DNA of 64,000 bases, from positions 104,284,001-104,348,000 of the forward strand of contig NC_091989.1 of the NCBI RefSeq assembly GCF_044704955.1, read 5' to 3'. The notes below the pieces were generated by a model that searched no databases, had not been told where the DNA came from, and worked only from the letters and a program-made list of their open reading frames with translations. The DNA comes from Pristiophorus japonicus (taxonomy: Eukaryota). Below, in pieces: positions 21,640-61,421 of this stretch. The translations under genes were made by a program, and so were the position numbers. Position 1 is the first letter of the stretch. Each line of letters opens with the position of its first letter.

Positions 21640-22281
21640 AGATAGAGCAGATGAATGAGTATCTGCAGAGATGGTGCAGGAGGGAGGGCTTTAGATTCCT
21701 AGAGCACTTTGGACCGGTTCTGGGGGAGTTGGGACCAGTAGAGGCCAGACGGGTTGCACATCAACAGGACCGGGACAAATATCCTCACTGGATGGGGGAG
21801 GGGGATTGCTAGTGCTGTTGTGGATGGTTAAAACAAATTTATCAGTGAGATAGGTACCAGGATGTAGCATCAGGAGAAACACGGTGCACAATGGAGTGGG
21901 AGAGACAGATAGCACCAGAGTAAGAGGTAGTACAGTATGAGGTGAAGTCAGACAAAAAGAAAATACGAGAAGGTCCAAGATAGGCTTACAGTACATGTGG
22001 TTAAATGCACAATGCGTGGTAAATAATGTTGGTGAGCTGCAGGTGCAAATATCCATGTGAGAATATAATGTTGTGGCTCAAAAAAGAGAAGATGTGGGTA
22101 CTAAATATTCCTGGATATAAAGAAGTTCAGGAAAGTTAGGGAAGGGAAGAAAAGAAAGGAGGTGGGGAGCAGTTTTGATCAAGGAGAATATTACAGTGCT
22201 GGAGAGAGAGAATCTCTTGGTGGAGTCAAGGTCATAATCTATTTGGTTAGAGATTGAAGTGGGACTTTAGAGGCCCACTAT
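21640..22281 (+). mobile_element. Old CR1 fragment (ORF1 end / EN start) abutting the ERV LTR
   Basis: Encodes LQRWCRREGFRFL, followed by degenerate EN N-terminal sequence. Confidence 0.75.
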
Positions 22282-22841
22282 TGTTAAGGAAAATAGGAAT
22301 TGGGCCTGCTATTAGAAACAGACATATTTTAGAATGTCAAATTATAGCAAAGCATTGCACACGAGCTGAGCAAAACAATTACAGGATGTAGCCTAATTGC
22401 TAGAAACTGCAAACTTGGCTACCTGAGTATTCTTAAACTAACAGGCAGGTCAAGATGAACATACATCTTCACAGATAAGAACATCTACCATGGTCAAGAA
22501 ATACAAACAACGGAAGAAATACAACTTCTAGCCCGCTAGGTAGGGGCAACTTGGAGACGTCTGTGAAAACATTCTCAAAAGTCATGAGCTTATATTCAGT
22601 TCTTGCAGTTAAGTCAGAGGCACTTTTGAAATGTCAGAGTCTGGGGTCAGTTCTTGGAACTGATGATGCATAATGGATTGTAGTTTTCGGCTTTAAATAC
22701 TATAAGCTGGCAGCCAGGCAGAGAGATGGAGTTTAGGGTTATACCCAAAACTGCTGTTCTCCCCTTGGCCAAGGTATTCTCAAATAAACATATTTTGTTC
22801 TTTAACAGACTTGTGTTGAGCTTTTATTTGGTTCCACAATA
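22282..22841 (+). mobile_element. 5' LTR of a retrovirus-like element
   Basis: Starts TGTTAAGGAA and ends TTCCACAATA (imperfect inverted termini). Has a TATA-like TTTAAATACTATAA at about 22692 and AATAAA at about 22783. Followed by a PBS. Confidence 0.7.
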
Positions 22842-22844
22842 AAT

Positions 22845-22862
22845 TGGCAATGTGGATGCGAT
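22845..22862 (+). promoter_or_regulatory. Primer-binding site, degenerate tRNA-Ser(GCU) type
   Basis: TGGCAATGTGGATGCGAT versus TGGCGACGAGGATGGGAT (recalled vertebrate tRNA-Ser 3' complement): 14/18 match, and two mismatches are CpG-type. Confidence 0.6.
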
Positions 22863-23199
22863 CCGCCAGGAGGCGGACAGACCAATGTCAACAGAAACAT
22901 CTCGGTGAGAGTAAGTTTAAAGTACCATTCCAAAATTAGACGAATTCTGTGATAAGACTGTCAAGTCAACCTGGGATTCCGAACTGTAAAGTCTGCTAAA
23001 GAACAAACTTTATTGGCGCGAGAGTGTGATAAGTTAGTTTAATGTAATTGATTTAGTTTAAAGTCATTGATTAGAACTGCGTTGTGCAGAAAGTATATCG
23101 GTGAAATAAGGCTAAGATTTAACATGAAGGTTGGAATAAACTACGGATTGGAGAGACGTGAAGTCATCGGACAGGTGACGTAGATCGTCAGACCATATA

Positions 23200-24456
23200 A
23201 TGTCATCGGGCAAAGGATTAGACTGGGGGTTAGACAACTCCCCTACTAAGTTCTATGTGGATGACCGGAAGGGATTAATCGACAAAATGTTAAAAGATGG
23301 GTGAGACCCGTTACAAGAACCAGCCGAGCAAAAGGCTTGGTGCGGAAAAGAGAAAACTAAGAGAGCCAAGAAAGCCGGTGTAATTATAGTGGGAGAGTTT
23401 TTACAATTTAGTGACAAGATGAAACCCAAAATTGAGGAATTAAGGCAATTAAGGGAAGAAGTAAAGAAACTAAGAGAAGCTAATGAAACCCGTTGTGTGT
23501 CCAGACTTTTTGGGAGACCCAGAGACTACGACAGGGACGAAGGCAGGGAGCCGGAGGCACCCACTTTCTATGAAAAAGCGAGAGTTACTGCACCCGAGTA
23601 TGACCTAGAGGATGATACTCAGCTCCCTGCAGCCCCATTGTGAACATCCAATACGGGACAGGGAGCTGACCGTAAAGTAGCAGTGAAATACATACCGTTT
23701 ACCCATTTGGAGAAACACGGGATCCTCAAGGATCTACCTTCTCTGAAGGAAAAACACAGCAATTCTGTATTTTGGAGATTGTTAAGGGAAATGTATGACA
23801 TCCACGAGATGCACGAGAGGGATGTACATCAGATAGTGAGGGCTAAATGCCCACGGCCTAAATGGGAGACATTAAGACAGCATTATAGAAATGGTGAATG
23901 GACTCCTTTGAATAATGCCAGTCAGGCAGTCCGACAGACAGCATACGATGATTTCACCCAGACAGTCCAAGCAGCCTTGCAAACTCCCGCTCCCAACTGG
24001 GGACTAATTTTGTTAGTCCGCCAGAAGAAAAATGAAAACAGCAGTGAGTATGGTCATAGATTGTGGACCGCCTATCAAGAATACTCAGGTCAGGCAGCCC
24101 CAGACAAGGAAGATCAGGCATTTTTAAAGATGTTTAAAGATGGCCCGTCAGCCGACCATCAGAAAATACTTAAGATGGGGGTAGTCGGCGCAGATACCTA
24201 TGCTGGACTGGTGAGCTGGGCATGCCAAGTGGATAATGAAGCCAGCCAACACCAGAAGCCGATCAAAGTAGAAATAGGAGCGGCACCTAGCAAAAGACCC
24301 AGTGGAGTTTGCTACAATTGTGGCAAACCCGGACACATATCCAAGGACTGTACGAGTCCACATCCCAAGTGCACCAAATGCCAGAAAATGGGGCACAACA
24401 AAAACCAGTGTTGGGTGCCGGGAGGGGCTGGAAAAGTCCCACACTATAGGGACTGA
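23200..24456 (+). pseudogene. gag: Retroviral gag with coiled-coil segment and two CCHC zinc knuckles (2 internal stops)
   Basis: A single frame from ATG 23200, with TGA at 23302 and 23641. Contains CYNCGKPGHISKDC and CTKCQKMGHNKNQC. Confidence 0.85.
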
Positions 24457-26200
24457 AAGCCAGTGGCCCCCACTCAGAGCGAAGGCGACCCTCGAATCGA
24501 CATAACAGTATTGTTAGGAGGCTGGCAATGGGAGATGTTGGTGGATACAGGAACCTCTGTCTGAATGACAGATATTCCCCTACCCACAACCAAACAGACA
24601 GATTTAATCACAGAGGTTGGGGGATCTGCCACCAGAGCACACTTAAGCAAAGTAATATTATTGGACGTGGCAGGGATTCTAATCCGTGCACAATTTTATG
24701 TTTGTCCCAATAATGAGGATACAATATTAGGAATCGATCTCCTAGAATAATTAGGAACGTTGATTGATCCCCGGGGGAAGAAAATAGTTTGGAGAAGCCC
24801 AAATGGTCACAAAACTGCTACCTTCAGGGAACAAAATAGATTGGACAACCATGCAAAGGTGGGGAGCGTACAACTCCTCACTAGGGTTTGGGATACATTA
24901 AAAGGATATGGCCCCGTGTGTCTGCAGATTGATGGAGTGTGGGCACGGTCCAAACAAGATTTTGGGCTGCTAGATATCGACCCAATCATTGTCCCGGGAC
25001 CCGAGCACACCCTTCATAAACAATATCCAATCAAACCTGAAGCCAGGGAGGCAGTCAAACAAATTGTACAAGATCTGCTGCACAGTGGCATACTCCGGGA
25101 AGCTGAGAGCACCACTAATTCACCCGTGTGGCCGTTAAAGAAGCCGGACGACTCATACCGACTGATTATAGATTACACGGCTCTGAATAAAGTGACACCT
25201 CGTCAGCACCCCATTGTAGCCAGCCCAGACACAATCTTTAACGGATTGAAACCCGACCATAAGATACTCACAGTCTTTGACATAGCCAATGGATTTTGGT
25301 CCATACCTGTGGCTCAGGAATCACAGGAAAGTTTGCCTTTACCTAGGGGACCTCCAGTATACCTGGACACGGGTGTCACAGGGATTCCACAATAGCCCGG
25401 CAATATTTCACCGGACTATGAGTCGAGCCCGAGAAAAGGTGGACCTAACCCTTTACAGAAGCACAGTCCTCCAGTATGTGGATGATCTGCTGATCGCCTC
25501 AGAGGATGAATGGGGCCACACGGGTGCTCTCTCAGAAATCTTAGAGACCCTACAAAGGGTGGGATTTAAAGCCAATCCCATGAAAGCCCAGATCGGACAG
25601 ACAGTGGTACAATATTTGGGACATGACATATCACAAGGGACCAGAACAATGTCTCAAGATAGGAAAGAAGCTATCAGAATCAGGCCCCACCCAAAGACAG
25701 TCCGAGGGGTACGGAAAGTACTGAGACGCTTTAATTACTGCAGAAACTTTATAGACAACTTCGCAGCCATAGCAGAACCAAAACAGAAATTGGTGAAAGG
25801 GGGGGAAACCCTCCCTAGAGAGTGTAGAATAGCGCCTGGAGCAGGAAGCAGCATATGGTAATCTGAATGAAGCCTTAATGTCTGCACCCGGCCTGCGACT
25901 CCGGAACATAGACATTTACTGCGAAAATGAGGAAGGATTCTATGGGGCAGTGGTCACTCAGATGCATGGGGACAGGATGCGTCCTGCAGCCTATTACTCA
26001 ACCCAACAGTCACCCGTGGTCTGTCACGGTGTGTGGCGGCTCTGGACTGTGCAACGTGGGCAGTAAAAGTCAGTGAACCGTTAGTGATAACCGGGGAGAT
26101 TGTACTGCTCACTAAACACACTCTGGAAGAAATGCTCAACACCGGGAAACTAAGATCCATGTCCAATGTACACAGGGCTAAATGGGAGGCAGTTTTACTC
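24457..26200 (+). pseudogene. pol: Retroviral pro-pol (protease, RT, tether/connection domain), truncated by CR1
   Basis: Protease MLVDTG..ILGIDLL. RT KQYPI..NSPVWP..LIIDY..DIANGFWSIP..YTWTRVSQGFHNSP..QYVDDLL. Tether GAVVTQ..RPAAYYS..CATWAV. Confidence 0.9.
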
Positions 26201-29178
26201 CTGTTGGGGAGGAGTTAAACTAATATGGCAGGGGGTTGGGAATCTATGAAGGGAGGCAGAGGGAAATAAAAGGGAGACAGAGACAAAAGATAGAAAAGAG
26301 AATAGTAAAAGTGGAGGGCAGAGAAACCCAAGGCAAAAATCAAAAAGGGCCACATTAAAGCAAAATTCTAAAGGGGCAAGGTGTGTTAAAAAGACAAGCC
26401 TGAAGGCTCTATGCCTCAATGCGAGGAGTATTCGGAATAAGGTGGACGAATTAACTGCGCAGATAGCAGTTAATGGATACGATGTAATTGGCATCACAGA
26501 GACATGGCTCCAGGGTGACCAAGGCTGGGAAATCCAGGGGTATTCAGCATTTAGGAAGAATAGACAGAGAGGAAAAGGAGGCGGGGAGGCGTTGCTGGTC
26601 AAAGAAGAAATTAATGCAATAGTAAGGAAGGACATTGGCTTGATGTGGAATCGGTATGGGTGGAGCTGCGAAATACCAAAGGGCAGAAAACGCTGGTGGG
26701 AGTTGTGTACAGGCCACCAAACAGTAGTAGTGAGGTTGGGAAAGCATAAAAAAAGAAATAAGGGATGTATGCAATAAAGGTACAGCAGTTATCATGGGCG
26801 ACTTTAATTTATATATAGATTGGGTTAACCAAACTGGTAGCAATGCGGTGGAGGAGGATTTCCTAGAGAGTGTATTAGGGATGCTTTTTTTGACCAATAT
26901 GTGGAGGAACCGACTAGCGAGCTGGCCATCCTAGACAGGGTGATGTGTAATGAGAAGGGACTAATTAGCAATCTTGTTGTGCGAGGCCCCTTGGGGAAGA
27001 GTGACCATAATACGGTAGACTTCTTTACTAAGATTGACAGTGACACAGTTAATTCAGAAACTAGGGTCCTGAACTTAAGGAAAGCTAACTTTGATGATAT
27101 GAGGCGTGAATTGGCTAGAATAGACTGGCAAATGATACTTAAAGGGTTGACGGTGGATAGGCAATGGCAAATATTTATAGATCACATAGATGAACTTCAA
27201 CAGTTGTACATCCCTGTCTTGAGTAAAAATAAAACAGGGAAGGTGGCTCAACCGTGGCTAACAAGGGAAATTAAGGATAGTGTTAAATCCAAGGAAGAGG
27301 CATTTAAATTGGCCAGAAAAAGTAGTAAGCCTGAGGACTTAGAATTCAGCAGAGGAGGACAAAGTGTTTAATTAGGAGGGGGAAAATAAAGCATGAGAGG
27401 AAGCTTGCCAGGAACATAAAAACTGACTGCAAAAGCTTCTATAGATATGTGAAGAGAAAAAGATTGGTGAAAACAAACGTAGGTCCCTTGCAGTCAGACT
27501 CAGGTGAATTAATAATGGAGAACAAAGAAAGTGAACAAATACTTTAATTCTGTCTTCACGAAGGAAGACACAAATGACCTTCCGGATATACTCGGGGACC
27601 GAGGGTCTAGTGAGAAGGAGGAACTGAAGGATATCCTTATTAGGTGGGAAATTGTGGTGGGGAAATTGATGGGATTGAAGGCCGATAAATCCCCAGGGCC
27701 TGATTGTCTGCATCCCAGACTTAAGGAGGTGGCCCTAGAACTAGTGGATGCATTGGTAATTATTTTCCAACAGTCTATCGACTCTGGATCAGTTCCTATG
27801 GACTGGAGGGTAGCTAATGTAACACCACTTTTGAAAAAAGGAGGGAGAGAGAAAACAGGTAATTATAGACTGATTAGCCTGATATCAGTAGTGGGGAAAA
27901 TGTTGGAATCTATTATTAAGGATGAAATAGCAGCACATTTAGAAAGTGGTGACAGGATCGATCCAAGTCAGCATGGATTTATGAAACGGAAATCTTGCTT
28001 GACCAATCTTCTGGAATTTTTTGAGGATGTAACTAGTAGAGTGGACAAGGGAGAACCAGTGGATGTGGTGTATTTGGACTTTCAAAAGGCCTTTGACAAG
28101 CTACCACATAAGAGATTGATGTACAAGATCAAGGCACATGGTATTGCGGGTAATGTACTGGCGTGGATAGAGAATTGGTTGGCAGGCAGGAAGCAGAGAG
28201 TCGGGATAAACTGGTTATTTTTGGAATGGGAGGCAGTAACTAGTGGAGTACTGCAGGGCTCAGCGCTGGGACCCCAGCTCTTCACAAGATACATTAATGA
28301 TTTGGATGAAGGAATTGAGGGTAATATCTCCAAGTTTGCGGATGACACTAAGCTGGGTGGCAGTGTGAGCTGTGAGGAGGATGCTAAGAGGTTGCAGGGT
28401 GATTTGGACAGGTTAGGAGAGTGGGCAAATGCATGGCAGATGCAGTATAATGTGGATAAATGTGAGGTTATTCACATTGGTGGCAAAAACACGAAGGCAG
28501 AATATTATCTGAATGGCAGCAGATTAGGAAAAGGTGAGGTGCAACGAGACCTGGGTGTCATGGTTCATCAGTCATTGAAAGTTGGCATGCAGGTACAGCA
28601 GGCGGTGAAGAAGGCAAATGGCATATTGGCCTTCATAGCTAGGGGATTTGAGTATAGGAGCAGGGAGGTCTTACTGCAGTTGTACAAGGCTTTGGTGAGG
28701 CCTCACCTGGAATATTGTGTTCAGTTTTGGTCTCCTAATCTGAGGAAGGACGTTCTTGCTATTGAGGGAGTGAAACGAAGGTTCACCAGTCTGATTCTCG
28801 GGATGGCTGAACTGACATATGAGAAGAGACTGGATCAACTGGGCCTTTATACAATGGAGTTTAGAATGATGAGAAGGGATCTCATAGAAACGTATAATAT
28901 TCTGATGGGACAGTACAGGTTAGATGCGGGAAGAATGTTCCCGATGTTGGGGAAGTCCAGAAATAGGGGACACAGTTTTAGGATAAGGGGTCGGCCATTT
29001 TTAGGACTGAGATGAGGAGAAACTTTTTCACTCAGAGAATTGTTAACCTGTGGAATTCCCTGCCGCAGAGAGTCATTGATGCCAGTTCATTGGATATATT
29101 CAAGAGGGAGTTAGATGTGGCCCTTACGACTAAAATGATTAAGCGGTATGGAGAGAAAGCGGGAAAGGGGTACTGAGG
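26201..29178 (+). mobile_element. CR1 LINE (ORF1 end through RT and partial 3' UTR)
   Basis: EN fragments at 26442-27371 and a 494-aa RT ORF at 27531-29015. Confidence 0.95.
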
Positions 29179-34972: not shown

Positions 34973-37900
34973 TGTTATGTATTTAACCCTTTGCAACCTG
35001 TATCACACCACCACCAGAGGGCCTTGGGAGCACTGTATATAAACAGGCCACCCACGATGTACCTGGAATCTTATTTAAGGAGCTAAGGTCACACTTGCTC
35101 ATTGTTCACAGTACTTAGTTTCATCGTTTATTATGAGTGTATCAATTGTGTTTGAGGTAACGAACAACCATGTGGAAATGCATACAAAAGTTGGTATCCT
35201 GGAGAAGTTTTCAGAAGGGGATGATTGGGAGGCCTTCATGGAGAGACTCAACCAATACTTTGTGGCTAACGAGCTGGAAGGGGACGAGAACGCTGCCAAA
35301 TGAAGGACGATTCTCCTTGCAATCTGTGGGGCAACAACCTATGGCCTCATGAAGAATCTTCTAGCTCCAGTAAAAACAGCAACCAAATCCTATGAAGAAT
35401 TGTGTACGCTGCTCCGGGAGCACCTAAATCATAAGGAAAACATTTTGATGGTGAGATATCTGTTCTACACGTGTCAACAGTTGGAGGACCAGGAAGTGAC
35501 AAGCTATGTTGCCGAACTAATGCGCCTCACAGGACATTGCGAATTTGAGGGATTCCTAGAACAAATGCTGAGAGATTTTTGTACTGGGCATTGGCCATGA
35601 GGTGATCCTTCACAAACTGTTGACTGTTGAAACTCTGAATCAAAGCAAAGCCATAATGATAGCCCAGGCATTTATGTCCACCAGCGACAACACCAAACAG
35701 ATTTCACTGAGTAAAGAGGTTTAGGCCAGTACTGTGCAGAAAGTAACGTCATTTTCGAGCAGGAATATACATGGCAGTACATACACACCGGCTGTTCCTG
35801 CATGACATCAGATGGCCTAGAGTCCACCATCAATCATTAATGCGAGGCAGTTAACATCTTATTGGCGTTGTGGAGGTGATCATCGGGCCCATCATTGCTG
35901 CTTCAAGCACTATGCGTGCAATGGCTGCAGAACAATGGGACACCTCCAGCGAATGTGCAGGCGAGCTGCAAACCCTGCAAACCAGCATGTTGCAGAGGAA
36001 GATCGATCCACTGTGGATCAGGGTGAATTAGAGACTCGTACCGAGGAGGCAGAAGTGTACGGGGTACACACATTCATCACGAAATGTCCACCAATAATGT
36101 TGAAAGTTGAACTGAACGGAATTCCAGCAGCTATGGAACTGGACACGGATGCGAATCAGTCCATAATGAGCAAAAAGGCCTTCGACAGGCTGTGGTGCAA
36201 CAAGGCACACAGGCCCAAGCTCAGCCCCATTCATACCAAACTAAGGACTTACACCAAGGAACTAATCCATGTAATTGGCAGTGCAGAAGTCAAACTCTCC
36301 TATGATGGAGCAGTACATGAACTCCCGCTGTGGATCATGCCATGGGATGGCCCCACACTGTTTGCCAGAAGCCATGTGCCTTGGTTCTGAGCAGCTTTCC
36401 ATCATTGTTCGAGCCAGGCATTGGAAGCTTCTTGGGGGTGAAAGTGCAGATCCACTTGGGTCCCGGTACATGACCCATCCACCACAAGGCACGGGCGGTA
36501 CCATATATGATGTGTGAGAAAGTGGAAATTGAGCTGAACACGCTGCAGCAAGAAGGCATCATCGCGCTGGAGGAATTCAAAAATTGGGCCAGTCCGATTG
36601 TCCCGGTACTTAAAGAGGATGGCACGGCCAGAATTTGTGGAGACTATAAAGTAACGATTAACCATTTTTTGCTACAGGACCAGTACCCAAGGCAGACGAC
36701 CTATTTGTGACCCTGGCTGGAAGGAAGACATTCACCAATTTGGACCTGACCTCGGCCTACATGACGCAGGAGCTGGAGGAGTCTTCGAAAGGCCTTACCT
36801 ACATCAACACGGACAAAGGTCTGTTCATCGATAACAGATGCCTGTTCGGGATTCGGTCGGCCGCAGCAATCTTCCAACGGAACATGGAGAGCCTGCTAAA
36901 GTTGGTTCCTCGCACCGTGGTTTTCCAGAATGACATACTGGTTAGAGGTTGGGACACCATTGAGCAATTGAAGAATCTGGAAGAGGTTCTTAGTCGGTTG
37001 GATCACGTGGGACTCAGGTTGAAACGCTCGAAGTGTGTTTTTCTGGTGCCGGAGGTCGTGTTCTTGGGAAGAAGAATGGCAGCAGACAGCATCAAACCCA
37101 CCGACGCCAAGACGGAGACCATCAACAACGCACCGAGGCCACAGAACATGATGGAACTGCAGTCATTCCTAGGACTCCTAAACTATTTCGATAATTTCCT
37201 ACCCGGGTTAAGCACCCCGCTAGCACCCCTACATCTGCTACTGCACAAGGGAGACGACTGGATATGGGGTAATTCACAAGAGGCTGCTTTTGAGAAAGCT
37301 AGAAATCTGTTGCTTTCAAACAAACTGTTTGTCCTGTATAACCCATGTAAATGATTAGTACTAGCTTGCGATGCGTCATCATGTGGGGTCGGGTGTGTTA
37401 AACAGGCTAATGAATCGGAGATTTTGCAACTGGTCGCTTATGCATCCAGAAGTTTGTCCAAGGCCAAAGTGTGATTGAAAAAGAGCCACTGGCATGCATT
37501 TACGGGGTTAAAAAAATGCACGAGTACTTGTTTGGGCTCAAGTTTGAGCTTGAAAATGACCACAAGCCACTCATATCGCTGTTCACTGAGAGCAAAGGGA
37601 TTAAAATCAATGCCTCTGCCCACATCCAAAGATGGGCGCTCACGCTGTCGGCATACAACTATGTAATCCATCACAGACCAGGTACAGAGAACTGTGCTGA
37701 TGCTCTCAGTCAGCTACCATTGCCTACGACCAGGGTGGAAATGGCACCGCCTCCGGACTTGCTCATGGTAATGGATGCATTCGAAAATTAAAAAATCACC
37801 CGTTACAGTTCACCAGATCAGGACCTGGAGTAGCCGGGATCCTTTGTTGTCCTTGGTAAAAAAAAACTGTGCCCTCCATGGGAGCTGGTCCAGCATCACA

Positions 37901-39304
37901 GCAGAGATGCAGAAGGCGATTAAGCTGTTTCACAGGCGCAAAGACGAAATGTCCTTGCAGGCGGACTCCCTGTTGTGGGGTAATCGCGTGGTCTTGCCCA
38001 AGAAAGGCAGACATACGTTCATTTGTTAGCTGCACAGCACCCACCCAGGCATTGTAATGATGAAAGTCATAGCCAGATCCCATGTGTGGTGACCGGGCAT
38101 CGACTCAGGTTTAAAGTCATGCGTGCGCCAGTGCAACACTTGCTGTCAGCTGATCAATGCACCCAGAGAGGCACTGCTAAGTTTGTGGTCATTGCCCTCC
38201 AAACAATGGTTGAGGATCCACGTGGTCTATGCGGGCCCATTTCTAGGCAAAATGTTCTTCGTTGTCGTGGATGTTTATTCGAAATGGATTGAATGTGCAA
38301 TAATGTCTGTAAGCACGTCCACGGCTACCATCGAAAGCCTACGAGCCATGTTTGCCCCGCACAGCCTGCCTGATGTCCTCATCAGCGACAATGGGCCGTG
38401 CTTCACCGGTGCTGAATTCATGGAATTCATGACCCACAATGGGATCAAGCACATCACATCTGCCCCGTTCAAGCCTGCATCAAATGGCCAGGCAGAATGG
38501 GCAGTTCAGATCATCAAGCAAAGCTTGAAACACATGTCCCTGCAGACCCGACTGTCCCAAATACTGCACAGCTACGCACCAGACCCCACTCACTCACCGG
38601 GGTTCCCCCAGCCGAGCTGCTCATGAAAAGGGTGCTCAAAACAAGGTTCTCTCTTGTCCACCCAGATCTTCATGATCACGTGGAGGGCAGGCGGCACCAA
38701 CAAAGTATGTACCATGACCGCGCAAATTTGTCATGTGATATTGAGGTCAATGACCCTGTGTTTGTACTCAATTATGGATATGGTCCCAAATGCTCGCTGG
38801 CATAGTCATAGCCAAATAAGGGAGTAGGGTGTTTCAGGTCAAATTAGCCAATGGACAAACATGCAGAAAACATTTGGAACAAATCAAACTGCAGTTCACC
38901 AACAGCTATGAACAACCAAATGAAGACACAACCAACTGTGACCCTCCAACACACACACAAGTGGCAACCGACATCATGGTTGACCACAAAGCCAAACTCA
39001 CCATCCCCAGCAGCCTGTCAAGGCTGGCTGCCCAGCAGCCCAGTGAACAACTAACAAACTCACCCATACCCGCATTTGTACAAGGGAGTGATGTTATGTA
39101 TTTAACCCTTTGCAACCTGTATCACACCACCACCAGAGGGCCTACCTGTTAGAGTCCCAAAGGATCCAAGCATCCCTTGGGAGCACTGTATATAAGCAGG
39201 CCACCCACGAGGTACCTGGAATCTGGAGTCTTACTAAAGGAGCTAAGGTCACACTTACTCATTGTTCACAGTACTCAGTTTCATCCTTTATTGAGAGTGT
39301 ATCA
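34973..39304 (+). mobile_element. Complete but decayed Ty3/Gypsy LTR retrotransposon (Mag / K02A2.6-like)
   Basis: LTRs at 34973-35144 and 39092-39304 (TG..CA), with TSD CTAAC at 34968-34972 and 39305-39309. Gag, protease MELDT, RT RICGDYK..DLTSAY..FQND, RNase H LACDAS and integrase HVVYAGP..SDNG..SNGQAE are present. The host CR1 is continuous across the insertion. Confidence 0.95.
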
Positions 39305-42678: not shown

Positions 42679-42846
42679 GTATCTCTTTATTCATTGTCTC
42701 AGCTACTTTAATTTATAAAATGCTTCCAACATAGTTTCCACACCAACTTAGTGAAAAGTACTTCCTCTATCTAGATTATTTTCTGTCTTCCATCTCCATG
42801 TCCTGTCTAATACAATTAACCTGTACTTGACGATATTTCCTTCCAG

Positions 42847-43170
42847 CAGCGGGCCAGATTTCGTTTAGTGTGACTCAAGCGCCCAAACAAACGACTGTGT
42901 CCAGAGGTGGGAACATCACCTTCTATTGCATATTCCCCACCTCTCAGGACCCATTCTCCTGGGTAAGAGTGTATTGGTGGAAACAGGGTGAGAATGAATA
43001 CCTGCGCACAAGCACCGACAAAAGAAAACAATTTGGTCTGGAAAATAAAGCGAGCAGTTACTTTCAGTTGCTGAGCGCGACTTTCCAAGACTCTGGGGTC
43101 TATCAGTGCGCAGTGTTCTATCGGGGAGCAGTTAGAGGAAATGGAACCGGCTCACAACTAATTGTACATG
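42847..43170 (+). CDS. IgSF receptor exon 2, single-exon VJ-type variable domain (NKp30/NCR3-like)
   Basis: Acceptor TTTCCTTCCAG. Encodes SVTQAP..ITFYC..VYWWKQ..DSGVYQCAV..GNGTGSQLIVH. Donor G|GTAAGT; phase 1/1. Confidence 0.95.
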
Positions 43171-44210
43171 GTAAGTGTGAAACACAGGAGAGCGGGACTG
43201 TCGAAAATATATCGAATGTAACAAACGGGCATGTTTTGTGATTCTTTTATTGCGCCGTTTTTGGCAGTATAAACATGTCTATTAATACATTTCGCGATAA
43301 GTTAAGTTGTATGTTCGTGTTCTCTGCACAGAACTGCTAAGGAGACATTAAATATCACAGACAAAATACTGCTAAATGTATTACTATTAACCAATTAGAC
43401 TATAACTCCACAGACAATTTATATACCTGATCTCTGAAAGCGGCATTCAGAACAAATCCCACGCATATAACTGACTGAAAACCGTTCATATTAACGCCTC
43501 TGCCAACATATATCGGCTCTTAGCCCATTTCTGATGCTCTGGCTGCCCTCATCGCTTTTTTTGCGGTTTAACATTCCTGAAATTAATTCTCACATAATGT
43601 TAGCGTCAGGGATTTGAACGTCAGCCTGCAACTAACTGTTGATCAACGGGTTCATTCAACAAACTGGATCTTGGAACACACAACCTTGTCATCTCAATAA
43701 CCTCCAATAATTCAAACAGTACACCGGAACTGTGTTGCCGAAACCTCCTGAGGTTCAACCGAGTATAAATTCTTTCAGCAATTTTCATGTTTCGGCTGTG
43801 AGTTCTGTCCGATACCGACTAAGGGCGTGGTTTTATCATCAAAAATGTGCAGATTATTCGGCACAGACTGTGCGCAACAAACACGGAGAGACTCAGCGCG
43901 CCAACTTGTCTCGAGGTTTATTTACTTAACTATTTGGACTATGAAAAGCCAGCTTTCATTAGCAAATCGTTGCGACTTGTCTGCTGAGTAACCGAAAGTC
44001 TTGCACTTGATAGCGCAGGTAAAATTGAACAGATGCGGGTGTCTGTGAGCGATATGGATGTAGATGGTGAGCGTAACATTAAAAAGACAGGAGTCTGCGC
44101 TTTCGAATTGTGCTTTTATAATAAAATAGACAGAACTTAAATCAGCAACCTTATTTAATTTCTCTCAATGCTGTCCAGTAACTCGACTTTGTTCATTCTC
44201 TGTTCCGCAG

Positions 44211-44522
44211 CGGCCCCAACTCCACTGAAGATTGTCTCCGGGACAACTGAAGGGAGTTCATCTGTGTCTCTGACTCTTGTGTATAAAACGGCTGCGTTCT
44301 ATCCGGAGAATTTCACCCTCACTTGGTACAAAAATGGCGTAGAAATTGCATTAATAACAGATACAAATAAAGTGCAGAACACCGAGGGACTGTATGAAGT
44401 TTCCAGCTCTTTGGCTGAGACGCAGCCTGTCCCGAGCGACACCAATTATACCTGTTTGGTATCTCATGTCTCCCTCTCGACTCCAGCTGTGGTCACATAT
44501 ACTGTTTCTAAATCTAACCAAG
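44211..44522 (+). CDS. IgSF receptor exon 3, C1-set constant domain
   Basis: Acceptor TGTTCCGCAG. Encodes TLV(Y)KTAAFYPENFTLTWYKNG..GLYEVSSSL..NYTCLVSHVSL. Donor AAG|GTATGT; phase 1/1. Confidence 0.95.
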
Positions 44523-44785
44523 GTATGTGGCCAACAGTCCAAAAAGGTGAAACTGTTATATTCGTAAACAGATATAACTTACAGTTTGTACATGCTGATA
44601 ATCATGAACTTAGTCCACAGAAGTCCCATGGGAGATATCAACGAAAGCATTAAATTCATGTTTTAATATATAACATAAGTAAACCCGATCTGTTGAAAAA
44701 CTGGTTCGATCGCCCGCCACACATATATTCTCAGTCAAATCTAATTTGCCTTCCAATTCCTCTATTTGATGTATGATAAATATAA

Positions 44786-51959: not shown

Positions 51960-52678
51960 CTTGAATAGAATGTTTAATCAGTTGGTCACACCGCAGGTAA
52001 AGGTTACTCAGGCAGATAGGGAATTGGTGACCATCAGGAAGAGCAGTGGAAGGAAGGTAGTGCAGGGGTCCCCGCAAAACAGATTATTGGGGGAGATGAC
52101 TCATCAGAGGAAGGCAACACAGCCAAGTCCATGGCACCAGGGGTGGCTCTGCTGCACAGGACGGCAGGAAAAAGAGTGGGAGAGCTATAGTGATAGGGGA
52201 TTCTATTGTAAGGGGAATAGATAGGCTTTTCTGTGGCCACAAACGAGACTCCAGAATGGTATGTTGCCTCCCTGGTGCAAGAATCAAGGATGTCTCACAG
52301 CGGCTGCAGCACATTCTGGAGGGGGAGGGTGAACAGCCAGCTGTCGTGGTACACATAGGTACCAATGATATAGGTAAAAAACGGGATGAGATCCTACAAG
52401 TTAAGTTTAGGGAGCTAAGAGTTAAATTGAAAAGTAGGACCTCAAAGGTAGTAATCTCAGGGCTGCTACCAGTGCGACGTGCTGTTCAGAGCAGGAATGG
52501 CAGGATAGCTAAGATGAATACATGGCTTGAGGAGTGGTGCAGAAGCAAGGGATTCAAATTCCTGGGATATTGGAACCGGTTCTGGGGAAGGTGGGACCAG
52601 TGCAAACCAGACGTCTGCACCTGGGCAGGACCGGAACCAATGTCCTAGGGGGAGTGTTTGCTAGTGCTGTTGGGGAGG
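51960..52678 (+). mobile_element. CR1 ORF1 (esterase), host of the ERV-L-like provirus; continues at 61422
   Basis: Encodes IGDSIVRGID..VVVHIGTNDIG. Ends GCTGTTGGGGAGG at the LTR. Confidence 0.95.
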
Positions 52679-53185
52679 TGTTTTGGATCAATAATAATAG
52701 ACCAGGTTTGGGATCTGGATGAATGTTAAATAAGAGACAAGACAAATGAAGTAAAGAGTAAGATACTGTTTACTGAGAGAAAAGAAACATTAATAATACA
52801 GTTTAGGAAGATAAGAGAAGTATGATAAGAGGCAACAATGCTCACAGCCTTCCGCCCATCGGGAACTCCGCAAGCGACGGCTGGTCTGGAGCATTGGGGA
52901 TCCTGGCACCGCTCGCGAATCACAGTCCAAGGTGAAGTTCAAAGAGCTACGGGACAGTGCTGTACCTTTATACTATCAAATAAACATACTATTGAACAAA
53001 ACATGGGTGCATGTGGCTTATGGACAACTCCTAATCTGTAAGGCCCCAGATGCTTGTCCACAAAGCATGAGACCTCGAGCCACGAACCATCTCATTACAA
53101 GCTGGTGTGCATCTCAAGGTTGCTTCCCCTCTCTCTCAAGCAACAACATCTACGAGCGGAGCAGAGATACACTGTGAATGACTAA

Positions 53186-56100
53186 CATAGAAATATAGAA
53201 AATAGGTGCAGGAGTAGGCCATTCGGCCCTTCAAGCCTGCACCGCCATTCAATGAGTTCATGGCTGAACATGCAACGACAGTACCCCATTCCTGCTTTCT
53301 CGCTATACCCCTTGATCCCCGAGTAGTAAGGACGACATCTAACTCCTTTTTGAATATATTTAGTGAATTGGCCTCAACAACCTCCACAGGTTCACCACTC
53401 TCTGCGTGAAGAAGCTTCTCTTCATCTCGGTCCGAAATGGCTCACCCCTTATCCTTAGACTATGACCCCTGGTTCTGGACTTCCCCAACATTCTTCCTGC
53501 ATCTAACCTGTCCAACCCCATCAGAATTTTAAACGTTTCTATGAGATCCCCTCTCATTCTTCTGAACTCCAGTGAATACAAGCCCAGTTGATCCAATCTT
53601 TCTTGATATGTCAGTCCCGGCATCACAGGAATCAGTCTGGTGAACCTTCGCTGCACTCACTCAATAGCAAAAACGTCCCTCCTCAAGTTAGGAGACCAAA
53701 ACTGTACACAATACTCCAGGTGTGGCCTCACCAAGGCCCGGTACAAATGAAGTAACATCTCCCTGCCCCTGTACTCAAATCTCCTCGCTATGAAGGACAA
53801 CATGCCATTTGCTTTCTTAACCGCCTGCTGCACCTGCATGCCAACTTTCAATGATTGATATACCATGACACTCAGGTCTCGTGGCACCTCTCCTTTTCCT
53901 AATCTGTCACCATTCAGATTATAGTCTGTCTCTCTGTTTTTACCACCAAAGTGGATAACCTCACATTTATCCACATTATACTTCATTTGCCATGCATTTG
54001 CCCACTCACCTAACCTATCCAAGTCACTCTGCAGCCTCATAGCATCCTCCTCACAGCTCACACTGCCACCCAACTTAGTGTCATCCGCAAGTTTGGAGAT
54101 ACTACATTTAATCCCCTCGTCTAAATCATTAATGTACAATGTAAACAGCTGGGGCCGCAGCACAGAACCTTGCAGTGCCCCACTAGTCACTGCCTGCCAT
54201 TCTAAAAAGTACCCATTTACTCCTACTCTTAGCTTCCTGTCTGCCATCCAGTCCTCAATCCACGTCAGCACACTACCCCCAATCCCATGTGCTTTAACTT
54301 TGCATATTAATCTCTTGTGTGGGACCTTGTCGAAAGCCTTCTGGAAGTCCAAATACACCACATCAACTGGTTCTCCCTTGTCTACTGTACTGGAAACATC
54401 CTCAAAAAATTCCAGAAGATTTGTCAAGCATAATTTCTCTTTCACAAACCCATGCTGACTTGGACCTATCATGTCACCTCTTTCCAAATGCACTGCTATG
54501 ACATCCTTAATAATTCATTCCATCATTTTACCCACTACCGATGTCAGGCTAACCGGTCGATAATTCACTGTTTTCTCTTTCCCTCCTTTTTTAAAACGTG
54601 GGGTTACATTGGCTACCCTCCACTCCATAGGAACTGATCCAGAGTCTATGGAATGTTGGAAAATGACTGTCAATGCATCCGTTATTTCCAAGGCCACCTC
54701 CTTAAGTACGGTGGGATGCAGACCATCAGGCACTGGGGATTTATCGGCCTTCAATCCCATCAATTTCCTCACAACAATTTCCTGACTAATAAGGATTTCC
54801 CTCAGTTCCTCCTTCTTACTAGACCCTCTGACCCCTTTTTTATCCGGAAGGTTGTTTGTGTCCTCCTTAGTGAATACTGAACCAAAGTACTTGTTAAATT
54901 GGTCTGCCATTTCTTTATTCCCAGTTATGACTTCCCTTGATTCTGATTGCAGGGGACCTACGTTTGTCTTTACTAAACTTTTTCTCTTTACATATCTATA
55001 GAAGCTTTTGCAGTCAATTTTAATGTTCCCCGCAAGCTTTCTCTCGTACTCTATTTCCCCTGCCCTAATCAAACCCTTTGCCCTCCTTTGCTGAGTTCTA
55101 AATTTCTCCCAGTCCCCGGTTTCGCTGCTATTTCTGGCCAATTTGTATGCCACTTCCTTGGCTTTAATACTATCCCTGATTTCCCTTGATAGCCACGGTT
55201 GAGCCACCTTCCCTTTTTTATTCTTACGCCAGACAGGGATGTACAATTGTTGTAGTTCATCCATGCGGTCTCTAAATGTATGCCATTGCCCATCCACTTT
55301 CAATCCCTTAAGTATCATTCGCCAATCTATCCTAGCCAATTGACGCCTAATACCTTCAATTTTACCCTTCTTTAATTTCTGGACCATGGTCTCTGAATGA
55401 ACCATTTCATTCTCCATCCTAATGTAGAATTTAACCATATTATGGTCACTCTTCCCCAAGGGGCTTCGCACAATGAGCTTGCTAATTAATCCTCTCTCAT
55501 TACACAACACCCAGTATAAGATGGCCTCCTCCCTAGTTGGTTCCTCGACATATTGGTCTAAAACCCTCCTCCATCGTATTGCTTCCAGTTTGGTTAGCTC
55601 AATCTATATGCATATTAACCCATGATAACTGCTGCACCATTATTGCATGCATGCCTAATTTCCTGTTTGATGCCCTCCCCAACATCACTACTACTGTTTT
55701 CTGCCCCTTGGTATTCCGTAGCTCCACCCATACCGATTCCACATCATCCAAACTAATGTCTTTCCTTACAATTGCATTAATATCCTCTCTCACCAGCAAC
55801 GCCACCCCACCTCCTTTTCCTTTCTGTCTATCCTTCCTAAATGTTGAATACCCTTGGATGTTGAGTTCCCAGCCTTGGTCACCCTGGAGCCATGTCTCTG
55901 TGATGCCAACCACATCGTATCCGTTAACTGCTATCTGCACAGTTAATTTGTCCACCTTATTCCGAATACTCCTCGCACTGAGGCACAGAGCCCTCAGTCT
56001 TGCCTTTTTAACACACTTAGACCCTTTAGAATGTTGCTGCAAAGTGGCCCTTTTTGTTTTTTGCCTTGGGTTTCTCTGTCCTCCACTTTTACTCATTTCC

Positions 56101-57677
56101 TTTCTATCTTTTGCTTCTGTCTCCATTTTGTTTCCCTCTCTTTCCCTGGATTGGTTCCCATCCCCCTGCCATATTAGTTTAACTCCTCCCCAGCAGCACT
56201 AGCAAACACTCCCCCTGGGACATTGGTTCCAGTCCTACCTAGGTGCAGACCGTCCATTTTGTACTGGTCCCACCTCCCCCAGAACCAGTTCCAATGCCCC
56301 AGGAATTTGAATCCCTCCCTGCTGCACCACTGCTCAAGCCACGTATTCATCTGAGCTATCCTGCGATTCCTACTCTGACTAGCACGTGGCACTGGTAGCA
56401 ATCCCGAGATTACTTCTTTTGAGGGCCTACTTTCTAATTTAACTCCTATCTCCTTAAATTTGTCTCGTAGGACCTCATCCCGTTTTTTACCTATATCTTT
56501 GGTACCAATGTGCACCACGACAACTGGCTGTTCAACCTCCCTTTTCAGAATGTCCTGCACCCGCTCTGAGACACCCTTGACCCTTGCACCAGGGAGGCAA
56601 CATACCACCCTGGAGTCTCGGTTGCGGCCGCAGAAACGCCTGTCTATTCCCCTTACAATTGAATCCCCTACCACTATCGCTCTCCCACTCTTTTTCCTGC
56701 CCTTCTATGCAGCAGCGCCAGCTACGGTTCCATGAACTAGGCCGCTGCTGCTCCCCATTGATGAGTCATCCCCATCAACAGTACTCAAAGCGGTGTATCT
56801 GTTTTGCAGCGGGATGACCGCAGGGGACCCCTGCACTACCTTCCTTGCACTGTTCTTCCTGTTGGTCTTCCATTCCCTATCTGGCTGTGGACCCTTCACC
56901 TGCGGTAAGACCAAATCACTAAATGTGCTATTGACATCATTCTCAGCATCGTGGATGCTCCAGAGTGAATCCACCTTCAGCTCCAATTCCACAACGCAGT
57001 CCGTCAGGAGCTGGAGGTGGATACACTTCCCACACACATAGTCGTCAGGGACACCGGAAGCGTCCCTGATTTCCCACATAGTACAGGAGGAGCATAACAC
57101 GTGTCCGAGCTCTCCTGCCATGACTTAACACTTAGACACACTGAAATTGGCAACAACAGTGTTAAAAGTTACTCACTGATATATAAGAGAAAAAAGAAAA
57201 ATGACTCACCAATCACCAGCCAATCACTTACCCCCTTGTCTGTGACGTCACCTTTCTATTTCTCTCTACTTTTTTGCCTTCTCCCTGGAGCTGCACAAGC
57301 ATGCCTCTCCACGCACCTCCCGACTGCCACCGCGTTGGGCCTTTTATAGGCCTGTCACTGACCCCGGACTTGCGCGTCTTCATGCACCTCCCGACTGCCA
57401 CCGCGTTGGGCCTTTTATAGGCCTGTCGCCGACCCCGGACTCGCTCCTCTCCCCACACCTCCCGATTGCCACCGCGTTGGGCCTTTTATAGGCCTGTTGA
57501 TGACCCCGGACTCGCGCCTCTCCACGCACCTCCTTGGCTGCCGCCGCATTGGGCCTTTTATAGGCCTGTCGCTGACCTCGGACTCGTGCCTCTCCACATA
57601 CATCCTCGACTGCAGCCGTGCTGGGCCTTTTATAGGCCTGTCGCCAACCTCGGACTTGCGCCTCTCCACACACCTCC
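53186..57677 (-). mobile_element. CR1 copy D, full length, inserted into the 3' LTR
   Basis: Tail at 53186; RT and EN ORFs at 53360-56126; esterase at 56174-56674; zinc finger CSSC..CGKC at 56705-57121; monomeric 5' UTR. Confidence 0.95.
57304..57677. repeat. Tandem array, 5+ copies of a 71-72-bp monomer, each with TATAAAAG on the minus strand
   Basis: CTTTTATAGG starts at 57341, 57412, 57483, 57555 and 57627. Confidence 0.92.
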
Positions 57678-57782
57678 TAATATCATAATTAACCCTATAT
57701 GATTAACCCTATACAATACAATTCACCCTTGATATTTAGACATTCTAAGTAATATAATCAAGTTGAAGGCGTAATGCATCAG

Positions 57783-58106
57783 CTACATGTTGAGTATGCT
57801 CAGCAACACACGCAATCTACACCTAAGAATACATACAAGCAGTAATAACGCGACAAGTAAAACAACGATCAGTGTTAGCATTAGCTAAACGAATTAGGTC
57901 TACAGTGGGAGGAAGGTTAGTAATTGTCTTGCGTACGATCAGTGTTAGCAAACTGCCACCCTATACGGCCATCCGATGCTGTGTTTGAGGATGGAAGTAG
58001 CACATATCCGATGCTGTGTTTGAGGATGGAAGTAGCACATGCACAGATAACGAGACACAGAGACTGGCCAGCACGAGTTGGTAAGTCGCCATTTTGGGCA
58101 GAATTC
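57783..58106 (-). pseudogene. Vestigial env-like region (splice acceptor, signal peptide, TM anchor)
   Basis: TACTAATGCTTCCTCCCACAG|G, then aaaATGG (58092) encoding MATYQLVLASLCVSLSVHVLLPSS. MLTLIVVLLVALLLLVCILRCRLR lies at 57881-57783. Confidence 0.55.
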
Positions 58107-58134
58107 CTGTGGGAGGAAGCATTAGTATATTATT

Positions 58135-59900
58135 TCAGCCCTGTTTAGTCAATTTACCCTTGTCAACACAGAGAGGAATATCTTGACCAGTCAGGAGCAC
58201 CCAATAAGTGTTCCCTTCTCCTTTCGTTAAGATTTCCCATTCTTGTAAGGGTTTCTGGGGGTACTGCACCCACACTTTTCCTCCTTCACAAACTGTGTCC
58301 TGAGTCTGATTTTCTTTTTCAATAGTAGGGACACTAACTTTGCCTAACATGTGGCTTATGGGAGATCCCCCCTCCACCCCCCCCCCCCCCGCAATGGTCG
58401 GTGATTCAGATTGCGCACTGCTTGTGGTAAGACCTTTAACCACCCTTGCAATGTGTTAGTGAGAGTTAATATTTTAATCTGTTGCTTAAGTATTCCATTC
58501 ATGCATTCTATTAACACTGCAACTTGTGGATAATAAGGTATGTGAAACATCCAATAGATCCCATTGTCTGCCGCCGACTGTTGCACTGTTTGACCTGTGA
58601 AGTGCGACCCATTATTGGACTGTACTTCTGCTGGCTCACCGTAGTATGTGATTAAATTCTCCAGTCCTTTAATTGTACTTTGTTAATTCGCTTTAGTCAT
58701 TGGATAAGCTATCAAAAGTCCAGAATAGATATCAACAGCAGTGAGCAAATATTGGAAACATTATTGCAATGGTAAAGGTCCTACATAATCAACTTGCCAT
58801 ATTTGTGCTGGTTGAGTCCCTCTCTTAATATGGGCACCGGGTTGTCATTGTAGGGGAAAATGCTTCACCTTTTGACAAATTTCACAGGTGTTTATGATCT
58901 GTTTAACACGGTCCATAGACAAATTTAACCCCCTATTTCATCCCCATTGTATCGTACCCTGAATGCCCAAATGTCCAGATTTGTGGTGGGCCCATTTGTC
59001 TATGCCATATTCTTCCTCTTCCGCCTCTTTGACAGCCCGTACCCGGGCTATATTATCAATGGTGTTATTATAGTCAGAGGTCTTTGAAGTGTTTTTCATG
59101 TGAGCGTCCACATGATATACAGTTATTTTCATCTTCTGGGCTTTGGACCATATTTGTGCTTTCCCCACAAGTCTTTCCCAGTTATTTGCCAGTTATGTTT
59201 ATGCCAGTTTCGCATCCAGCTCGCCATGGCCATTGGCTACTGCCCATGAGTCAGTATATATGTTTACTTGTTGCTTTTCCTCTTCTAACACAAGGACTAC
59301 AGCTGCTCATTCTGCTAGCTGGCTGGAGCCTCCCATGCCCTCATCACGCACAATTGTCTGGGTTTTTGGATTGAAGGCAGCGGCTCGCCATCACCGAAGG
59401 CCATTTCGCCAGACCACTGAGCCATCTGTGAACCAGGCATGGCTACGCTCTTCAGGTTTTATCTGTTCAAAAGACACACCCCAGGAGATTGGTGACTCCT
59501 GGGTTAAACTGACAGATGACTGCGTAAGTTCACTCTCAACTGTTTGTGGGTATTCAGCCACATGCTCATGTAGTCGGTTGATTCCTTCTGTTCCTTTACT
59601 TGCTCTTTCTGCGATATTCCATCTCCAGTGCACTATGGAGCTTTGCTGCGCTCACCCAACCTTGTGCGTCTCATTGGCCACGTCGATTACCACATACCAC
59701 TCCGCACCTTCTTTAGACAGCCGCTCTGTTATAGTTACGACATCTGGGACAGCGGTTGTCAGGGCAGGGGCAAATTTCTTCAGTTGACGGTAATCTACAG
59801 TCATCCTCCAACTTTTGTCAGGTTTCTGCACAGGCCAAACAGGATGATTGTAGGGGGACACCGCATGTCTAATGATACCCGCCCCAAGAGCCCTTGTATG
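58135..59900 (-). pseudogene. pol: ERV-L-like pol remnant (RT N-terminus fused to tether end, RNase H, integrase)
   Basis: SPYNHPVWPVQKPDKSWRMTVDYRQL..AVPDVV..WYVVIDVAN, then a deletion at about 59672. Confidence 0.9.
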
Positions 59901-60253
59901 TTTTCCCCTGTAAGGTTCACACTTTCTCAAGACTTCCCAAATACAGGACAACACTACGAAGGGTTAAAACAACCTTCTCTGTTTGAAAAAGTGGCTGGAG
60001 CTGAAACAAACAGACAGCTCCACTATTTTTCCAAACAGGCTTTCAGACACATGAAAAATTCATTCCGCAGTCAAAAAATCACAAAAGCACTTTCTTTCAC
60101 AGACAGACATTCATAAATTCTTTCTTCATTCAACAAAACTTATTATGGTTACTCCCTTGTCAGGTAAGTAATCGGAATGTGTGGGTTCAGATCTCTGGGA
60201 GCTTGGGTTGATGTGGTTCTAACGGAGAGTGCTCCCGGATCCCGGCCACACCC

Positions 60254-60800
60254 CTAGTCGAGGGGATCTTCTACATCCTCTAACAGTCCTAACAATAGGC
60301 AGGCATGCCCCACCCGCTGCCCTTGGGTTGGTCCCAATAATGCGAGTAGCGCACCCCTCATCATAGGAGGGCCACTCTTCATCAGGCTGCTCCGCATTCC
60401 TGCCATCAAGAGCTCCTGATCTGGCCCCCAAGATTGTTGGTGATATATTCCTCCCTGTGTTGCCATGTTGCGCAACTGTATCGCATCCTCCGCCATAGTA
60501 TTCCAAGGTTTTACCTCCCCTTCGCAATCAACGGCAGAGGGATATTTTTGCCAGACCCTGATAGTAACCATATCCCATGGCGAACCTGTGCCCTGGACAT
60601 TCCGTAGCACTGTTGTGATATGGTGGCCCATAGTCATAGTCCCCATTTTTGTTAACTCTTCGGGGTTAAGTATTTCTTGTAGCTCACTAGTGGTGAAGTC
60701 ACGCACCCCTCTAGTGGTTACCAGCTGTTGCCCATCTTGCTGTTTTGTCTTATTTGTCATCCCTCATCCCTCGTGCTCCACCCCGGTATTCTATACTTCT
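60254..60800 (-). pseudogene. gag: ERV-L-like gag remnant
   Basis: RDFTTSELQE..VWQKYP..WNTMAEDAIQLRNMA..IY..GPD resembles ERV-L capsid motifs. It sits directly after the PBS. Confidence 0.7.
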
Positions 60801-60851
60801 CTCCCGCAGGAGGAGACTGCTTCTTGTCTTTTCTCTTAAACATTTTACCAG

Positions 60852-60869
60852 ATCCTGTTCGTGTTGCCA
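60852..60869 (-). promoter_or_regulatory. Primer-binding site, tRNA-Ser(CGA) type
   Basis: TGGCAACACGAACAGGAT versus TGGCGTCACGAACAGGAT (recalled tRNA-Ser-CGA 3' complement): 16/18 match, 3 nt from the LTR. Confidence 0.75.
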
Positions 60870-61421
60870 AAATGTTTTGGATCAATAATAATAGACCCAA
60901 ATTCGGGATCTGGATGAATGTTAAATAAGAGACAAGACAAATGAAGTAAAGAATAAGATACCGTTTACTGAGAGAAAAGAAACATTAATAATACAGTTTA
61001 CAAAGAAAAGAGAAGTATGATAAGATGCAACAATGCTCGCGGTCTTCCGCCCATCAGGAATTCAGCAAGCGATGGCTGGTCTGGAGCATTGGGAGTCCCG
61101 GCACCGCTCATGAATCACCGTCCAAGGTGAAGTTCAAAGAGCTACGAGACAGTGCTGTACATTTATACTATCAAATAAGCATACTATTGAACAAAACATG
61201 GGTGCATGTGGCTTATGGCCAACTCCTAATCTGTAAGGCCCCAGGTGCTTGTCCACAAAACATGAGACCTCGCGCCGCGGACCATCTCATAACAAGCTGG
61301 TGTGCGTCTGAAGGTTGCTTTCCCTCTCTCTCTAGCAACAACATCCACGAGGTGGAGCAGAGACACACGTGAATGATTAAATATCATAATTAACCCAATA
61401 TGATTAACCCTATACAATACA

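Follow-up and report, generated by a model that had tools for sequence, protein, structure and literature searches.

The stretch of DNA analysed here, called the window throughout, comprises 64,000 nucleotides of the Pristiophorus japonicus genome (contig NC_091989.1, positions 104,284,001 to 104,348,000 of the forward strand). It carries the front half of a multi-copy endogenous retrovirus (ERV), which runs from a long terminal repeat (LTR) and a primer-binding site (PBS) through gag and an in-frame TGA into coding sequence for protease, reverse transcriptase (RT) and a tether domain. We consider it fairly probable that this is the dead 5′ half of an ERV of a likely SnRV-related grade (class III, clade Huo). 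Its ancestor was likely primed by tRNA-Ser, likely produced Gag-Pro-Pol by UGA readthrough, and had an env predicted to encode the fold of paramyxovirus F and foamy virus Env. The features of the locus are as follows.

22255..22841, + strand: 5′ LTR of 587 bp (TGAAGT...CCACAATA), matching both LTRs of the two-LTR copies L016, L019 and L029
22845..22862, + strand: degenerate PBS for tRNA-Ser(GCU), with 4/18 mismatches to the 3′ end of the host tRNA-Ser(GCT) gene
23200..24453, + strand: gag, interrupted in frame by stops at 23302 and 23641 and missing ~69 nt close to its 3′ end
24310-24351 and 24370-24411, + strand: two CCHC zinc knuckles (Pfam zf-CCHC, 2.2e-9)
24454..24456, + strand: in-frame TGA between gag and pro (GAC TGA AAG), likely a readthrough stop; TGA in 42/43 alignable copies
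24465..24523, + strand: candidate readthrough stem (GGCCCCC/GGGGGCC), weakened in the window copy; in the minimum free-energy structure of 31/41 copies
24457..26201, + strand: pro, RT and tether, truncated (Pfam RVT_1 and RT_RNaseH_2, followed by RNase_H in copy L025)
26202..29130 (end approximate), + strand: CR1-type long interspersed nuclear element (LINE), not viral, starting at the provirus breakpoint

An initial annotation of this sequence set the start of the element at 22282; the real start, at 22255, lies 27 bp earlier. The RT signatures, paired zinc knuckles and shared frame around the TGA that it described are all where it placed them, on the + strand. The window LTR diverges by 10-13% from the 5′ LTRs of L016, L019 and L029 (the stretch compared being shifted by 2 bp). 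The Ser-type PBS proposed earlier is also borne out in 13/20 other copies, which have 0-3 mismatches to tRNA-Ser(GCT), with no match in the remaining 7/20; among three tRNA-pattern loci in the host search, two were not called as tRNA. Window gag shares 30% identity with the gag portion of Heterodontus P0183 (E 3e-53), and its ~69-nt deletion, defined relative to other copies, lies immediately upstream of the TGA.

The protease DTG (24544-24552) is in frame with this TGA, and pro-pol is damaged by stops at 24562 and 24748 and by frameshifts in both RT and tether. RT motifs are KQYPI (25018-25032), LIIDY (25162-25176), DIANGFW (25279-25299), YTWTRVSQGFHNSP (25358-25399, in the next frame after the frameshift) and YVDD (25475-25486). 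As first described, the RNase H-like domain after RT lacks TDAS: it reads IYCENEEG where a Gypsy protein has LTTDASG. This domain, which lacks the catalytic motif, is a tether. The LINE beyond the breakpoint is presumably CR1, to judge from its ORF2 sequence. The 3′ half (RNase H, integrase (IN), env and the second LTR of this family) was not found between 10 kb before and 40 kb after the window. The window copy is a dead, ordinary fragment that makes nothing functional.

The rest of the element is nevertheless present elsewhere in the genome. A 601-bp RT probe returned 1748 first-look candidates from the 5.9-Gb assembly, and all 40 that were scored were 89-100% identical to it; probes for env, the gag-pro junction and the LTR returned 517, 411 and 243, respectively. 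These are candidate counts rather than copy numbers. Copy anatomy was judged on 20 copies, each fetched at 10 kb. The full layout, LTR-gag-pro-RT-tether-RNase H-IN-env-LTR, occurs in L016 (8844 bp) and L019 (8564 bp), so that the RNase H, IN and env which the initial annotation expected other copies to supply were recovered. A second RNase H follows the tether in L025 (Pfam). Target-site duplications of 5 bp, a class III trait, flank 3/4 copies examined. None of the family copies seen has an open pol or env. Divergence between paired LTRs (Kimura two-parameter distance 0.035-0.100 in five copies, one with a partial LTR) gives a loose date of 8-23 My at a mammalian rate, or tenfold older at the shark rate given in PMC4422223. 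Among named relatives, the closest belong to Mustelus, Heterodontus, Pristiophorus and Chiloscyllium.

Nine of the 20 fetched copies (L013, L017, L020, L021, L022, L024, L026, L027 and L030) form a gag-less subfamily. In these, most of gag has been swapped for a common, unrelated segment of ~315 nt, while the TGA and pro-pol are retained; L021, L022 and L027 additionally have a common internal deletion in env. The subfamily likely amplified in this gag-less form, and therefore Gag was likely supplied in trans.

To place the family, we drew references from IMG/VR contigs and protein searches. The RT tree has 63 rows (31 short or redundant rows of 94 were dropped) and the approximately unbiased (AU) tests have 39 (24 more dropped). 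L078-L092 are foamy-type, judging by their layout. L043 was taken as SnRV by its UAG-GGC junction, single knuckle and 10,688 nt (PMC12193657, PMC13517186, PMC1224870). L045 has the UGA-AGA junction of SSSV; L050 corresponds to P0057, which is named WEHV1, and L051 comes out as its sister in the trees. Loki-type rows were recognised by motifs that match those in the supplement of PMC7947760, where 0/3 chondrichthyan genomes are listed as positive.

RT places the family inside the canonical retroviruses (100/99) and outside the loki (100/99) and foamy (100/100) clades. It also lies outside the gamma/epsilon/alpha/beta/delta group (93/98), which agrees with the earlier view of a basal vertebrate retrovirus with a tether. 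Its nearest relatives are Heterodontus P0183, P0179 (clustered with a Mustelus member) and P0180 (97/84), and beside it stand elements of sharks, minnow and eel as well as unnamed ones. AU tests reject clades with lokiretroviruses (p=1.5e-16), WDSV/WEHV (p=5.5e-67), gammaretroviruses (p=4.6e-9) and Gypsy (p=3.7e-6). A gammaretroviral RT clade is thereby ruled out, as is Ty3/Gypsy, the latter also by the tether without a catalytic motif; nesting within Gypsy or the epsilonretroviruses had been named as an outcome that would overturn the first interpretation. The tests do not reject a wide clade uniting the family and the SnRV group (p=0.205). A scan of viral contigs with a single protein gave no match.

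RNase H falls on the gamma/epsilon/SnRV side, against foamy and loki (99/98), a split that corresponds to group III versus group I in PMC7947760. In the IN tree, in which CGIN1 is not included, a loki clade (98/93) excludes the family. The tether and second RNase H are common to all retroviruses. We consider the family likely to be of SnRV grade within class III, a filing made by elimination and common anatomy rather than by a recovered clade. SnRV shares with it an in-frame stop between gag and pro-pol, the RT motifs D-I-x-NGFW and YTWTR-x-PQGFH (LDISNGFW and YTWTRLPQGFH in SnRV), an RT identity of about 42-44%, a homologous env and, as in clade Huo, the tether and a gamma/epsilon-type RNase H. 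The SnRV genome, at 10.7 kb, is longer than that of the family (8.6-8.8 kb), in which no long 3′ ORF was noticed. SnRV, too, has the RT motifs first taken as a foamy sign. SnRV-related ERVs are already published for the elephant shark (PMC4422223), and CmiERV lineage I of that species is counted with SnRV-related class III by description (PMC4422223, PMC6001957).

The envelope provides a further link. In full copies env is broken; it encodes an RQKR-type cleavage site followed by a long ectodomain, and a hydrophobic anchor. The CX6CC motif is absent from all 32 rows of the env alignment, and Pfam searches of env fragments and homologues found no envelope family and no Fusion_gly match. A search of 1.84 billion proteins with a profile built from seven natural env fragments retrieved 28 at E<=0.001, of which the nine looked up come from sharks and frogs. 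Long uninterrupted homologues include P0407 (Chiloscyllium punctatum, 739 aa; UniRef name Ig-like domain-containing), P0415 (Pelodytes ibericus, 723 aa) and P0419 (Xenopus tropicalis), which are either young proviruses or domesticated genes. The family fragments align with P0407 over 471 columns (hhalign, 99.5% probability).

The structural model of P0407 has a mean predicted local distance difference test score (pLDDT) of 61, mostly >70 over residues 180-250 and 370-600. Against the PDB it matches the F proteins of RSV, hPIV3, henipavirus and hMPV (best E 1.2e-10) and foamy Env (9.8e-8); against BFVD (Foldseek) it matches WEHV1 (E 1e-8), WDSV and feline foamy Env. Its VIA Z is 11.9 (root-mean-square deviation 17.6, 333 aligned). 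The relation to Mononegavirales F proteins that the initial annotation proposed to look for is therefore found at the level of predicted fold. The env profile itself matches the envs of WDSV (94.4%) and SnRV (90.4%), at L051:5962-9648 and L043:6131-9532, respectively, as well as a foamy profile (79.4%); gamma, alpha, beta, delta, SSSV and Xenopus ERV envs and all 15 reversed controls stay below 5%. In pairwise BLAST, the env fragments showed no significant similarity to SnRV env or to other viral envs; the profile found only coiled-coil noise among PDB sequences, and Atlas returned no usable match. By way of this distant homologue, the family env is predicted to have the paramyxovirus/pneumovirus F and foamy Env fold.

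The gag-pro junction was examined in 43 aligned copies of 44 distinct candidates, after seven duplicates were dropped. TGA occupies the site in 42/43, and the remaining copy has TCA beside an indel. The copies were picked by similarity, partly with a probe that itself carries TGA; over 400 bases the bias from this is small. A sister ERV family (L025:1-1960, - strand, and L153-L177) was found nested in one copy; two RT pieces show 49-76% identity, and a first look gave 526 candidates. In 18/24 aligned copies of this sister family the same site holds TAG, and therefore the position of the stop has been kept while its codon changes. From these alignments we take TGA to be ancestral to the window family. 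The first methionine downstream of the stop lies two residues before VDTG, probably too late to yield a whole protease; no frameshift is needed, and the stop is conserved. Programmed UGA readthrough is therefore the likely route to Gag-Pro-Pol.

Eight nucleotides after the stop, a GGCCCCC arm pairs with GGGGGCC, and this stem is found in 31/41 family copies and 16/24 sister copies; the sister family has the same spacer and arms with a longer loop. We regard the stem as a lead, a candidate aid to readthrough. Its distance from the stop is similar to that in MoMLV (PMC13517186). In the same source, the gag-pro junction is given as UGA in SSSV, ZFERV and a frog ERV but as UAG in SnRV, and the readthrough cis-elements of fish retroviruses are described as unknown.

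Taken together, these features suggest a life cycle that would begin with LTR-driven RNA, translated mostly into Gag and, by occasional UGA readthrough perhaps aided by the stem, into Gag-Pro-Pol. Reverse transcription would be primed by tRNA-Ser, integration would generate the 5-bp duplication, and entry into cells would proceed via a furin-cleaved F-type trimer. Germline amplification, partly as a gag-less subfamily needing helper Gag in trans, would have been followed by decay of the window copy and insertion of the CR1 element.

Several observations weigh against this reading of an SnRV-grade, readthrough-using element with an F-type envelope. In the maximum likelihood (ML) trees the family is not joined to SnRV but branches separately, together with elements from eel and other fishes, and the AU test rejects a clade of the family with SnRV alone (p=0.033). 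A joint clade with foamy viruses is not formally rejected (p=0.061; the tree has no fish foamy-like rows). A motif scan for ERV-L references gave 0 matches, and the trees are without ERV-L, ERV-S and Odin rows. SnRV has one knuckle and UAG, whereas the family has two CCHC knuckles and UGA. For the envelope, the fold comes from a homologue at about 15-19% identity, with modest pLDDT and a high root-mean-square deviation; a family env fragment folded alone from its single sequence was unusable (pLDDT 34), and the profile gave weak matches to individual foamy envs (1-61%). At the junction, stem stability equals that of the control (mean z -0.60 vs -0.59), so folding z-scores do not single the site out, and the stem is almost without covariation, its 3′ arm lying inside coding sequence.

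The strongest competing explanation, which we nonetheless judge unlikely, is that the family belongs to a basal orthoretrovirus lineage in its own right, spread among aquatic vertebrates (sharks, eel, minnows and sturgeon), lying between SnRV and gamma/epsilon and in none of the five named clades. ML RT trees branch SnRV first and place the family on the next branch (91/87), and IN loosely groups the family with eel and P0007 elements, away from SnRV. However, the branch support is below the starred level, and the wider clade with the SnRV group survives the AU test. Clade Huo is described as broad, extending across all vertebrate groups (PMC6001957), and sampling here is thin. A quick tree with a single loki row had set the family beside SnRV, a position that disappeared with eight loki-type rows and Gypsy outgroups.

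It is very improbable that the element is instead foamy-like (clade Tu) and has simply retained zinc knuckles and readthrough. The N-terminal RT fragment is closest to foamy RT in the PDB, the AU test does not formally reject a joint clade, and the two share KQYPI, NGFW and YVDD motifs and an F-like (class Ib) env fold (PMC11468914). Against this, the C-terminal RT fragment matches gamma RT best, the fully supported foamy clade leaves the family out, and its RNase H belongs to another group. Foamy Gag is without zinc knuckles, and foamy pol starts independently in a different frame (PMC1224870, PMC8278194); the family has knuckles, pol in the gag frame behind a stop, and a Ser primer.

We give hardly any credence to the idea, raised in the initial annotation, that the TGA is a decayed sense codon in a single gag-pol frame, or to its bypass by splicing. 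The window copy does have several further stops, and its UGA-AAG is not a context of the UGA-CUA/CGG type. Decay of CGA at CpG would, however, leave CGA and CAA, and neither occurs in any of the 43 aligned copies (0/43); the near-universal TGA and the TAG of the sister family also speak for a real stop. The contexts UGA-AGA and UGA-AGU have been described in SSSV and a frog ERV (PMC13517186).

A lokiretrovirus, which would be the first from a cartilaginous fish, is the least credible identity: the tether with second RNase H and the F-like env are features of that group (PMC7947760, PMC9040795), but the AU test on RT refutes it under the model used, RNase H and IN fall outside loki clades, and identity is 30% to loki-type P0121 against 61% to shark relatives. 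Of the loki/spuma-like candidacy first proposed, the loki part thus falls to the trees and the foamy part to anatomy.

The window and its flank contain other elements. At 42831-44653 (+ strand) an immunoglobulin V-set exon that ends in a J-like GTGSQLIV is accompanied by a C1-set exon (Pfam 1.6e-8 and 1.5e-9); the pair resembles an NCR3/NKp30-like receptor gene. A broken Gypsy-type pol with RT and integrase matches occupies 35821-38626 (+), and a second, very degenerate retroviral element with a gag-like ORF and short RT and IN matches occupies 58569-60763 (-). CR1-type LINEs are densely stacked on both strands at 8000-33700 and 52000-63200, some with a GDSL-esterase ORF1 (52100-52648). About 31-37 kb beyond the window end, on the - strand, lies another retroviral element, L181, with a pol 45% identical to P0179 and a match to the env homologue P0391 (E 4e-8). 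Among the reference proteins, the P0082 cluster contains retroviral Pol proteins annotated as Klebsiella pneumoniae in NCBI; they group with bird ERVs and are likely contamination.

The mosaic of features first described is not new. SnRV combines readthrough with one knuckle (PMC13517186, PMC1224870), and XtERV-S, a class III frog ERV, is described as having a Ser primer, gag and pol in frame with a TGA between them, and a tether (PMC8278194). Compared by description, XtERV-S differs in its YIDD, dUTPase-like region and gamma-type transmembrane subunit with CX6CC, where the family has YVDD and no CX6CC (PMC8278194). Sequences of this lineage from other sharks may already be present in the supplements of PMC6001957 and PMC4422223. 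What appears new is a lineage that combines two knuckles and UGA with a predicted F-type env, along with the link of SnRV and WDSV env to the F fold. WDSV and WEHV resemble the family in readthrough, RNase H group and an env matching the same profile, and differ in RT, where a joint clade is rejected.

In print, F-like envs are those of lokiretroviruses, foamy viruses and errantiviruses, with orthoretroviral Env called a different subclass (PMC11468914) and epsilon Env described as a distinct, recent development (PMC9967133). A single old F-type env, or a link between SnRV and WDSV env, was not found stated in the literature searched, which did not cover Calcraft 2024 (Cell). The TGA/TAG sister pair offers a readthrough element compact enough to test. 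The predicted F fold in a canonical, non-foamy lineage, together with a profile that reaches SnRV and WDSV Env, suggests one old env type across the base of the family. We tentatively speculate, at somewhat less than even confidence, that F-type (class Ib) env is ancestral in retroviruses and persists in lokiretroviruses, foamy viruses, SnRV, WDSV/WEHV and this aquatic lineage at the orthoretrovirus base. Gamma- and beta-type envs would then be later replacements, and a readthrough stop in which UGA and UAG can be swapped, with a stem 8 nt downstream, would be equally old.

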